Part shown: piece after piece, positions 42,091-44,082 of the stretch | Position numbering within the stretch: the first letter of the stretch is position 1 | Layout: each line of letters opens with the position of its first letter | From: Gammaproteobacteria bacterium | Lineage (GTDB): Bacteria; Pseudomonadota; Gammaproteobacteria; UBA9339 | Direction: 5' to 3' | Length of the DNA: 44,384 nucleotides | Assembly (NCBI GenBank): GCA_023135155.1 | Contig: JAGLTR010000029.1 | Coordinates: 1 to 44,384 of the forward strand | Translations under genes and position numbers: made by a program | Notes under the pieces: model-generated | Database searches by the model: none | What the model saw: only the letters and a program-made list of their open reading frames with translations | What the model was told of the DNA's origin: nothing

Positions 42091-44082
42091 CTAAGGTGAT
42101 GGAGAAGAAAGGTGGTTGGCAGGATCGTGTATTGTAACACTATAAATGTTTGCTCCCTCTTGCCAGTTTATGCTCTCAATATAGTCGCCAATACCCATGC
42201 TTTTATTGCCAACATTTATTTTTAGAGTATCGTGATACATATTATTGCGGCATGACTCCAATACGTATTTCAATAATTTACTATTGCGCAAATCGCAAAT
42301 CTGTTTTAGGGTGCTGTTTAGATTATGAGCTATGCTATGATCTAGCAAAATGGTTAATAACTGGTCTGTAAATAAATGAGAGTATTTCAAGCAGTTTGTT
42401 TCGTTGAAAAGTCTAGTCAGAAGACTTGAGTCACAGCAATCGGGTAATCTTAATGTTATATTTAATCTATCTAGAATAAATAATTTTACGTCCATAGGTA
42501 TATCATGTCTTGTAAGCCAGGTTTTATCCCTAAAGCATTTTTTGAGTTTGTGTATAGTTTGTTCATTTGCTTCGTCAAATAAAGTTTTGAGTGCTTGCTT
42601 TTGATTTATGTGGTTACTGAGTGCTACGTAATCAAAGCAGTGTGTTGTTATAAGCTCATTATGATGAGAAAGCAATTGAATGATTGCTGGTCTTTGCTCT
42701 TTCTTAGTGGTTGATTTTGAGATGCACACATACTCTAAAATATTGATAGGCTTATTATTGTATTTAATCAAAATTCTATCTAGGAGGAAGTTATTAGGTT
42801 TGTTCTCTAAGAGTTTTTTGATGGTTTCTATGGAGAGTGTTTTTATAGCAATGCACATCCTATTTATATAGTCTTGATGTTTATCATTGGGTTGATCTTC
42901 AGGGGGGCGGTTGGAAGAAGGTGATTGCCGGGTATGTCCATGGTGCTCTCTGTTATATGGTTGGTATCTAGGAGGATAAAACGATGGTAAAGAATGTGGG
43001 TAGATATATTTGGGCATTAAATTCTTATAAGTGTCTGCTCCCTCTTGCCATTTTATGAGCTCAATATAGTCGCTAAGCCCCATGCGTTCATGGTCAGTAT
43101 TTATTTCTAGAGTATGGAGACGTACCGGATGACCCCAATTAAATAATACATATCTAAATAGTTCATTATTACGCAAATCGCAAATCTGTTTTAAGATTTT
43201 ATCTGGACTGTTACGCATACTATGATTTAGTATAAAATGTAATCCATTTGGTTGAAGCACATGAGTGTATCTCAAATATTCTGTTTCGCTAAGAAGGATA
43301 TATTGAAGATGGGGGTTTGTGATGATATCTTCTTTGCTTAATTTCATATCGAGTTTATCTAAAAACAATAGTTTGGTGTTTATAGGCAAATTGTTCAATT
43401 TGAGAAGTAGTGCTTTAAAGGCTGTATTTTTTTGGAGGTCTTTCACGGTTTCGTCGTTAGCGTGTTTGAATAAAACTGTTAACGCAGAGGCATGATCTGC
43501 GGTTGGGTTACATGCTATATGTATAAAGCAAAATGTTGTTATAAGGTTCTTATGTTGCGAAAGTAGTTCAATAATGCTTTGTTGTCGAATAACGAGGGTT
43601 TTATGAAATGTCCTTAATGAGCATGCATATTCTAAAATATTCTGAGATGGAATATTGCTTGGAACTGTAAGTTGGCTTAGGTCAACAGATTTATATTTGT
43701 TGGCTAAAAGAGATGCTATCCTTTGTGAATTATATGTTTTAATAGCATTAATCAAATCAGATATATCTAGACTGTTGTTTGGAAATTGACGTTCTGTATT
43801 GGCTTTAGCGTTGGGATGTTGTTGTGGTTGTTCAAAATGTGTTATCGGTTTTTCCGGTTTGCGTCGATGGGACAGCCAGTTATCATAAGTAGTGTGCGAT
43901 TTTGGGTCGCTAAGCGTGTGGTGTGCCTCATTAAGTTCTTGTGCTTTAGCTGTGGCTCTAGTAGTTTCGGATTGTTCGCATTTGTCAGGATGATGCGCAA
44001 GTATTAGTCTGTGATAAGCCGATATTATTTCGCTTTGACTTGCATTTCTGGGTACACCTAGAACTTCATAATATGTGGTCAT
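42091..44082 (-). CDS. J-domain (DnaJ-like) protein with two tandem copies of a novel ~245-aa module; effector-like orphan
   Basis: The N-terminus YYEVLGVPRNASQSEIISAYHRLILAHHPDK carries the HPD motif. There is no G/F region, zinc finger or DnaJ C-terminal domain. aa ~105-352 and ~403-647 are paralogous (QNILEYACS/INILEYVCI, IIELLSQHKNLITTFCF/IIQLLSHHNELITTHCF, LKQICDLRNNELFRYVL/LKQICDLRNSKLLKYVL, MGLSDYIELIKWQEGADTY/MGIGDYIESINWQEGANIY). They are joined by a P/Y/H-rich linker. Confidence 0.8.
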   Translation of the reverse strand: MTTYYEVLGVPRNASQSEIISAYHRLILAHHPDKCEQSETTRATAKAQELNEAHHTLSDPKSHTTYDNWLSHRRKPEKPITHFEQPQQHPNAKANTERQFPNNSLDISDLINAIKTYNSQRIASLLANKYKSVDLSQLTVPSNIPSQNILEYACSLRTFHKTLVIRQQSIIELLSQHKNLITTFCFIHIACNPTADHASALTVLFKHANDETVKDLQKNTAFKALLLKLNNLPINTKLLFLDKLDMKLSKEDIITNPHLQYILLSETEYLRYTHVLQPNGLHFILNHSMRNSPDKILKQICDLRNNELFRYVLFNWGHPVRLHTLEINTDHERMGLSDYIELIKWQEGADTYKNLMPKYIYPHSLPSFYPPRYQPYNREHHGHTRQSPSSNRPPEDQPNDKHQDYINRMCIAIKTLSIETIKKLLENKPNNFLLDRILIKYNNKPINILEYVCISKSTTKKEQRPAIIQLLSHHNELITTHCFDYVALSNHINQKQALKTLFDEANEQTIHKLKKCFRDKTWLTRHDIPMDVKLFILDRLNITLRLPDCCDSSLLTRLFNETNCLKYSHLFTDQLLTILLDHSIAHNLNSTLKQICDLRNSKLLKYVLESCRNNMYHDTLKINVGNKSMGIGDYIESINWQEGANIYSVTIHDPANHLSSPSP

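Follow-up and report, generated by a model that had tools for sequence, protein, structure and literature searches.

The minus strand of the window (the whole stretch of DNA analysed here, 44,384 nt of contig JAGLTR010000029.1 from the gammaproteobacterial assembly GCA_023135155.1) carries at positions 42091-44082 a gene for a J-domain protein of 663 amino acids (aa). The protein joins a domain of the type that recruits Hsp70, the J-domain, to two diverged copies of an orphan helical module. We consider it likely that it is a lineage-specific class C J-domain adaptor for Hsp70, whose partner would more likely be the DnaK of the bacterium itself. The original prediction for this gene, made from the letters alone, is confirmed in its observations, with corrections given below, and is partly supported in its interpretation. 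The gene is composed as follows.

42091..44082, minus strand: whole gene, class C J-domain protein; ATG-started open reading frame (ORF) of 663 aa, stop codon included
43876..44082, minus strand: J-domain, aa 1-69, with the Pfam PF00226 match on aa 3-67
43984..43992, minus strand: HPD tripeptide H31-P32-D33 in the translation, pairing with H33-P34-D35 of E. coli DnaJ
43771..43875, minus strand: linker 1, aa 70-104, rich in P, Q and N, standing where a glycine/phenylalanine-rich (G/F) region would be
43027..43770, minus strand: module 1, aa 105-352, first copy of the orphan helical module, paralog of module 2; GC 33.6%
43026..43296, minus strand: best-conserved third of module 1, pairing with 42141-42411 of module 2
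42877..43026, minus strand: linker 2, aa 353-402, low-complexity, rich in P, Y, H and S
42133..42876, minus strand: module 2, aa 403-650, second copy of the orphan helical module, paralog of module 1; GC 32.7%
42141..42411, minus strand: best-conserved third of module 2, pairing with 43026-43296 of module 1
42091..42132, minus strand: C-terminal tail, aa 651-663 (IHDPANHLSSPSP), and stop codon; rich in S and P, predicted to be disordered

The domain order is thus J-domain, P/Q-rich linker, module 1, P/Y/H-rich linker, module 2 and a short S/P tail. At the composition of the gene a stop is expected at 6.5% of the codons, and the probability of meeting 663 stop-free codons by chance is about 3e-20; in the ORF list, no ORF in any alternative frame of the region exceeds 73 aa. 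The same protein, 100% identical, was called in the NCBI assembly GCA_030644425.1 (contig DAOWLC010000067.1, 66.5 kb) and in the Logan assembly of SRR13892601. Neither a signal peptide nor a membrane helix was found (the Kyte-Doolittle mean over 19 residues peaks at 0.94). The amino acid make-up is unusual, as G, A, V, D and E together contribute 18.5% of the residues compared to 32 +/- 5% in neighbouring genes. Linker 1 has no secondary structure in the full-length structural model (predicted local distance difference test, pLDDT, about 30), and linker 2, which had been described as a low-complexity linker rich in Pro, Tyr and His and indeed has 10 P, 5 Y, 5 H and 5 S among 50 residues, is equally unstructured there. 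For the final 10 residues of the protein, pLDDT is below 50 in the model of module 2.

The J-domain is identified with high significance. PF00226 (DnaJ) matches with E 4.2e-19 and 68.9 bits, which is 41 bits above the 27.8-bit cut-off, and the match extends over profile positions 1-63 of 63; J-domains from the PDB match with a best E of 2.6e-13. Identity to the J-domain of E. coli DnaJ is 39% in the alignment, which allows a comparison at the functionally relevant positions (DnaJ residue numbering as confirmed in PMC4063869).

Y25 in DnaJ, Y23 here: kept
K26 in DnaJ, H24 here: changed
HPD 33-35 in DnaJ, HPD 31-33 here: kept
R36 in DnaJ, K34 here: kept (basic)
F47 in DnaJ, A47 here: changed
L57 in DnaJ, L57 here: kept

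The equivalent of DnaJ R27 is conserved, too (R25). Helix II reads SEIISAYHRLILAHHPD here and REIRKAYKRLAMKYHPD in E. coli DnaJ, so that R25 and K34 are the only basic residues left, and the KFK motif of DnaJ has become K46-A47-Q48. The domain had been called canonical, which holds for the Pfam match and for the HPD motif; it does not hold for the replacement of K26 by His and of F47 by Ala. A basic residue at DnaJ position 26 in helix II has been proposed to form, together with HPD, the fundamental Hsp70-binding surface, and exchange of this basic residue, or F47A, inactivated the J-domains that were tested (PMC1906734).

By score, the J-domain is equally close to bacterial (Thermus DnaJ2, E. 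coli DnaJ) and to eukaryotic (DNAJB9, DNAJA3) J-domains, and the Hsp70 partner cannot be inferred from the J-domain sequence. The nearest J-domains in the databases belong to class A DnaJ proteins of about 375 aa, with at most 50% identity.

It had further been stated that nothing downstream of the J-domain resembles DnaJ, CbpA, DjlA or HscB, and this proved correct: the C-terminal 590 residues have no match to a known co-chaperone domain. The parts that characterize classes A and B (zinc finger PF00684, C-terminal domains PF01556, G/F region) have no match in the protein. All matches to the NCBIfam models for DnaJ, CbpA, DjlA, HscB, TopJ and ActJ are confined to aa 1-95 and stay far below the cut-offs. 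TIGR02349 and the CbpA model cover only the J-domain (60 and 34 bits, cut-offs 377 and 403), as does the HscB model (21 bits, cut-off 46.75). The DjlA model reaches 26 bits (cut-off 162), and the J-domain is N-terminal here and is not accompanied by a hydrophobic segment. Since G/F region, zinc finger, C-terminal domains and any DjlA or HscB part are all missing among these matches, the protein is to be assigned to class C (type III), which is defined by a J-domain with a remainder unlike DnaJ and CbpA (PMC8215388, PMC10410713). This class is very heterogeneous, and protein-interaction domains are frequent among its members (PMC8215388). In UniProt, the J-domain is the sole annotated part of about 100,000 J-proteins (PMC10410713).

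The two modules of about 245 aa are paralogous, as had been proposed. Their alignment (246 aa, 4 gap positions, E 6e-46) has 37% identity and 59% positives; 63% of the residues thus differ between the copies. The modules were also said to be alignable at the DNA level. Both strings quoted in support are present, at positions 42151 and 43036 of the plus strand, but only the last third is clearly alignable (71% identity over the last 73-90 codons or so of each module, 283 nt), together with a patch of 51 nt. Synonymous (dS) and nonsynonymous (dN) divergence was estimated by the method of Nei and Gojobori on 253 aligned codons, with bootstrap ranges given in brackets.

All 253 codons: dS 0.81 (0.59-1.16), dN 0.59, dN/dS 0.72 (0.49-1.01)
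First 180 codons: dS 1.06 (0.72-1.71), dN 0.70, dN/dS 0.66
Last 73 codons: dS 0.41 (0.21-0.71), dN 0.37, dN/dS 0.93 (0.43-1.99)

Over all codons, dN/dS reaches 1 in just 3% of the bootstraps. The 95 conserved residues are encoded by identical codons in 67 cases, while 41 are expected from the codon usage of the gene (z 5.9), and therefore synonymous sites are not saturated. Third codon positions are identical in 57% of the cases compared to 53% for first positions. These estimates point to a duplication of moderate age, not ancient and not very recent either, after which the protein appears to have changed fast under weak purifying selection. The earlier dating as fairly recent is compatible with the unsaturated dS and is contradicted by the large proportion of changed residues. 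The lower dS in the last third suggests that this segment was subject to later gene conversion between the tandem copies; stronger constraint would be another possible cause of the similarity.

Outside of this protein, the module was not encountered. With a profile built from both modules, HMMER was run exhaustively over 1.84 billion representatives, which stand for about 15 billion proteins, and retrieved nothing but the protein itself; in 5.8 billion protein clusters, a word-indexed search recovered it together with matches restricted to the J-domain. No relative of the module was found in GTDB (one genome for each of 185,579 species), in JGI metagenome contigs or in IMG/VR; PLSDB plasmids gave matches to the J-domain and none to the module. 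Pfam, NCBIfam, PHROGs and PADLOC contain no family for it, and the best match among PDB sequences has E 0.7. Tblastn over 64 kb of the same contig (the window plus flanking stretches) did not reveal an additional copy. A 533-aa protein which has only the J-domain in common (P0003) was considered as a relative of the module and proved unrelated on comparison. The module had been called uncharacterised, and this can be sharpened: as judged by these searches it is a true orphan that occurs in no other known protein.

When module 2 was modelled by AlphaFold2 with module 1 as the sole alignment row, pLDDT was 82.1 and the predicted template modelling score (pTM) 0.73. The model consists of about 15 short helices and of two elements in which a beta-hairpin is followed by a helix, one near each end. 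The full-length model from the single sequence is poor (pLDDT 44). Foldseek comparison of the module model to PDB and BFVD gave no significant match, the best having E 0.04-0.05, template modelling scores (TM) of 0.2-0.4 and root-mean-square deviations of 8-15 A. The weak top matches are all alpha-solenoid binders (designed armadillo proteins, PUF domains, DARPins and other ankyrins, giant-virus ankyrin proteins), and the best ones in BFVD are mostly giant-virus ankyrin proteins.

Within the module, a motif of 32 aa, IKKLLENKPNNFLLDRILIKYNNKPINILEYV, resembles a second stretch, LKYVLESCRNNMYHDTLKINVGNKSMGIGDYI, with a BLASTP E of 3e-4 in a tiny search space; at the profile level this internal repeat is weak (hhalign E 0.058). 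By eye, the motif looks like the helix-loop-hairpin junction of ankyrin repeats, and ankyrins are among the top Foldseek matches (E 0.04-0.5, TM 0.2-0.4, for a model from a two-sequence alignment). Membership in the ankyrins was nevertheless rejected, as no Pfam Ank family matches at E <= 10 and hhalign to a consensus ankyrin protein yields a probability of 0.15%. The Pfam families Arm and PUF likewise have no match to the module even at E <= 10. We thus describe the module as a predicted helical, repeat-like domain with no confidently assigned known fold and do not call it an ankyrin domain.

The gene had been considered AT-rich compared to housekeeping genes. With 35.5% GC it is indeed about 2 standard deviations below the 34 other large ORFs (41.9 +/- 3.0%), and GC at third codon positions is 31% compared to 37 +/- 5% (ruvB has 48.6% GC). 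However, only the two modules are low in GC; with 42-43%, the J-domain and both linkers are at genome level, and the gene of a hybrid histidine kinase (1718-3820) is equally AT-rich (34.7%). The composition hints at foreign or fast-drifting modules that were fused to a J-domain of resident type, without being a strong anomaly. A GC content at genome average and class A DnaJ proteins as source of the closest J-domains fit a resident origin of the J-domain. GC skew of the plus strand, which carries most genes, stays positive at about +0.15 to +0.3 along almost all of the 44 kb, as is consistent with one replication arm; the coding strands of minus-strand genes, among them the J-domain gene, are poor in G.

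The J-domain gene stands alone. On its 5' side, a divergent intergenic region of 367 bp separates it from the gene of a 552-aa metallophosphatase, and on its 3' side, after 231 bp, follow a HAD hydrolase and a pot-like ABC transporter on the same strand. Further out there are rodZ-like, hisS, yfgM, bamB and der on one side and htpG, rpoS-nlpD-surE, tol-pal and ruvCAB on the other. No secretion-system gene is among the genes in the 64 kb of contig, and no tRNA was found in the regions examined. In the 22-kb locus that surrounds the J-domain gene, where flanking direct repeats were not searched, no called gene belongs to an integrase or phage protein family. A promoter-like site precedes the HAD gene; in the scan for promoters and terminators, sites were no commoner than in shuffled sequence.

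About 230 nt upstream of the start codon of the J-domain gene there is a perfect inverted repeat, which is preceded by AAAAA and followed by TTTTT.

44314..44384, unstranded, cut by the window end (arms at L001:9693-9723 and 9739-9769): perfect inverted repeat with 31-nt arms, 100% complementary, and a 15-nt loop

Apart from the two arms, its 25-mer is absent from the window (0 chance matches expected). The repeat has the appearance of a strong bidirectional terminator but is located between the divergent genes for the metallophosphatase and the J-domain protein. The metallophosphatase (L001:7975-9633, just past the right end of the window) is of the calcineurin-like type. It has no relative in JGI metagenome contigs and is not found beside hisS in 80 gammaproteobacterial loci; by these searches it is apparently another lineage-restricted gene adjoining the J-domain gene.

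Two conserved gene clusters in the region are interrupted. An ORF of 1161-1168 aa (7006-10512, plus strand) lies between tolR (6510-6962) and tolA (10563-11423) in a cluster that is otherwise canonical (tolQ-tolR-tolA-tolB-pal-ybgF), which is unusual. This ORF has no family in Pfam, NCBIfam or PHROG, and a lone stray PADLOC match is to Drt3a (E 0.0012). Similarly, ruvA and ruvB are split by a familyless ORF of 559 aa (37-1716, plus strand) and by the hybrid histidine kinase/response regulator already mentioned (minus strand); ruvC-ruvA is just left of the window (see L083:12105-14808). The window further codes for a class I fructose-bisphosphate aldolase (28184-29197, minus strand; PF00274, E 5e-141) and for a transporter of the Sugar_tr type of the major facilitator superfamily (MFS; 20376-21812, plus strand; E 2e-120). 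Class I aldolases and Sugar_tr MFS transporters are best known from eukaryotes.

SRR13892601 corresponds to sample RS_11, 0-20 cm sediment collected 1121 m deep at a cold seep of the South China Sea, Site F (described in PMC9357000). Among the 185,579 GTDB species genomes, the closest histidyl-tRNA synthetase (HisRS) has only 63-64% identity, and the top matches are spread over Chromatiales, Alteromonas, Pantoea, Methylococcales, a metagenome-assembled genome (MAG) of Coxiellaceae and others; therefore, no intracellular lineage can be claimed. Identity to GTDB species representatives is at most 40% for bamB and at most 45% for yfgM. In 80 hisS-anchored GTDB loci, with HisRS identities of at most 64%, none of the metallophosphatase, J-domain, HAD and pot genes is beside hisS, and a scan of the GTDB species representatives for J-proteins did not return the source genome itself. 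The genome appears to represent a deep, poorly sampled gammaproteobacterial lineage which has no close relative among the GTDB representatives.

As to function, we envisage that the N-terminal J-domain, with its intact HPD, would dock on Hsp70, probably the bacterium's own DnaK, and trigger ATP hydrolysis. The two all-helical, repeat-like modules of about 250 aa, carried on flexible proline-rich linkers, would act as protein-binding surfaces and determine to which client or site Hsp70 is recruited. The second module is the product of a tandem duplication inside the gene, after which both copies diverged fast under weak purifying selection and the last thirds may have been homogenised later, or been more constrained. 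The analysis shows the gene, its J-domain, the duplication, the orphan status of the module, its helical prediction and the pattern of divergence; that the protein stimulates Hsp70, that its modules bind clients and that it works in the bacterium and not in a host is inferred. This adaptor function is supported by the strong Pfam match of a J-domain that has kept HPD and the equivalents of Y25, R27, R/K36 and L57. It is supported by the confident helical model of the module, with alpha-solenoid binders as its weak structural neighbours, and by the open frames of both copies with a dN/dS that only rarely reaches 1 in the bootstraps. The lack of a signal peptide or membrane helix, the unstructured linkers and the ordinary housekeeping neighbours free of secretion machinery support it further.

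Several points weigh against this view. His24 and Ala47 deviate from DnaJ at two functionally tested positions and therefore productive stimulation of Hsp70 is uncertain; the module model was built on an alignment of two sequences only. Constraint is weak, with a dN/dS of 0.93 in the best-conserved third, and there is no homolog anywhere, which leaves room for a decaying or marginally functional gene. Finally, secreted effectors, too, are typically fast-evolving orphans, and AT-rich modules, helices of repeat-like type, linkers rich in proline and a disordered S/P tail are typical of them as well.

The last point leads to the proposal, close to the original prediction, that a type III, IV or VI system delivers the protein to a eukaryotic host such as a protist or invertebrate, where the J-domain commandeers host Hsp70 and the modules bind host targets. 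In addition to a module with no homolog in about 15 billion proteins, an overall dN/dS of 0.72 and the contrast between AT-rich modules and a J-domain at genome level, this would fit a repeat-like helical fold whose weak best BFVD matches are mostly giant-virus ankyrin proteins, the proline-rich linkers, and the disordered C-terminus in a protein free of a Sec signal. The large orphan ORFs that interrupt conserved operons on the contig (1161 aa at tolR/tolA, 559 aa at ruvA/ruvB) recall effector-rich genomes, and HopI1 is a precedent for bacterial J-domain effectors (PMC6802931). We nevertheless consider a translocated effector unlikely. An intracellular pathogen hijacking host Hsp70, as first envisaged, is not borne out by 64 kb of contig free of secretion genes, by a MAG from bulk sediment, by a lineage that is no nearer to Legionellales or Coxiellales than to other orders, and by a J-domain that is not closer to eukaryotic than to bacterial ones; even HopI1 comes from an extracellular plant pathogen (PMC6802931) and has its J-domain at the C-terminus, not at the N-terminus as here. 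Just two Glu and two Asp are present among the last 35 residues, where by eye there is no Glu-rich block of the Dot/Icm type, and an atlas of 368 L. pneumophila effectors mentions no J-domain. The deviations at positions 26 and 47 argue against efficient activation of any Hsp70. A more specific version, in which a deep-branching marine gammaproteobacterium lives with a eukaryotic host, the surface with His26 and Ala47 (DnaJ numbering) tunes the capture of host Hsp70 and the two modules tether it to host targets, is in our view less likely still.

The same deviations in the J-domain (PMC1906734) would be expected if the gene were decaying or marginally functional and specific to its lineage, with a J-domain that no longer activates Hsp70 and modules that drift near-neutrally, or if the protein were a J-like scaffold devoid of chaperone activity. 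The overall dN/dS and its value in the last third (0.43-1.99), third codon positions that are not more diverged than first positions, the occurrence as a singleton in all databases and the low content of G, A, V, D and E are all compatible with decay. Such a gene would, however, not be expected to keep a frame of 1992 nt open against the stop codon expectation, two intact copies with 4 gap positions in 246 aligned, a J-domain far above the Pfam threshold, a confident and compact AlphaFold fold, an overall dN/dS that so seldom reaches 1, and a sequence that is identical in two independent assemblies, and we regard decay as slightly less probable than even the specific host scenario. The remaining proposal, cargo of a phage, mobile element or defence island, in which an Rki-like J-protein manipulates DnaK on behalf of a mobile element, can draw on the existence of orphan phage J-domain proteins (PMC3486835), on PHROG matches to the J-domain (phrog_14336, E 9e-12), and on a stand-alone gene with a perfect 31-nt palindrome upstream and a lower GC content in the modules. 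But these PHROG matches are limited to the J-domain, there are no PADLOC matches and no IMG/VR relative, and the searches for tRNAs and for integrase or phage families described above, with their stated scope, were negative. Surrounded by hisS, the rodZ-like gene, the metallophosphatase, the HAD hydrolase and the ABC transporter, the gene has a genomic context on which we reject this origin as highly improbable.

If the adaptor function applies, the protein is one more case in which J-domains attached to new binding modules redirect Hsp70. It would, if it were an effector, be the first J-domain effector outside plant pathogens and would have a new binding fold, and it would become a candidate for an effector by which an unstudied marine lineage hijacks Hsp70 if the whole genome had a host-directed secretion system. 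At present the protein is a singleton of a single MAG and ordinary for its class, and the class C architecture is commonplace. As a case of J-domain attachment it would be fairly clean, since the internal duplicate allows the divergence of an orphan domain to be measured when no homolog is at hand (dS about 0.8, dN/dS about 0.7).

Among known systems, DjlA, HscB, DjlB/DjlC, AtcJ and TopJ are built on the same principle, an HPD J-domain with a non-DnaJ part that confers specificity or localisation, and like the protein described here such proteins are free of the G/F region, the zinc finger and the C-terminal beta-sandwich domains. The membrane anchor of DjlA, the C-terminal domain of HscB and the TopJ region have no counterpart here; instead, the non-J part is an internally duplicated orphan module, which sets the protein apart from the named class C members. 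With the ankyrin, armadillo and PUF binders it shares a predicted stack of short helices and differs in having no significant match to them in sequence or structure. HopI1 has a C-terminal J-domain and carries a signal for type III secretion, and its source is a known pathogen. This Pseudomonas syringae type III effector, which acts via Hsp70, likewise combines a J-domain, a proline-rich low-complexity region and a lineage-specific part (PMC6802931), while the J-domain is N-terminal in our case and there is no sequence similarity outside of it. The gene of Rki in phage RB43 is an orphan, too, and Rki combines a functional J-domain with a remainder of no known type (PMC3486835); unlike the phage-encoded Rki, the gene described here has a chromosomal housekeeping context, and the similarity of the two proteins is limited to the J-domain.

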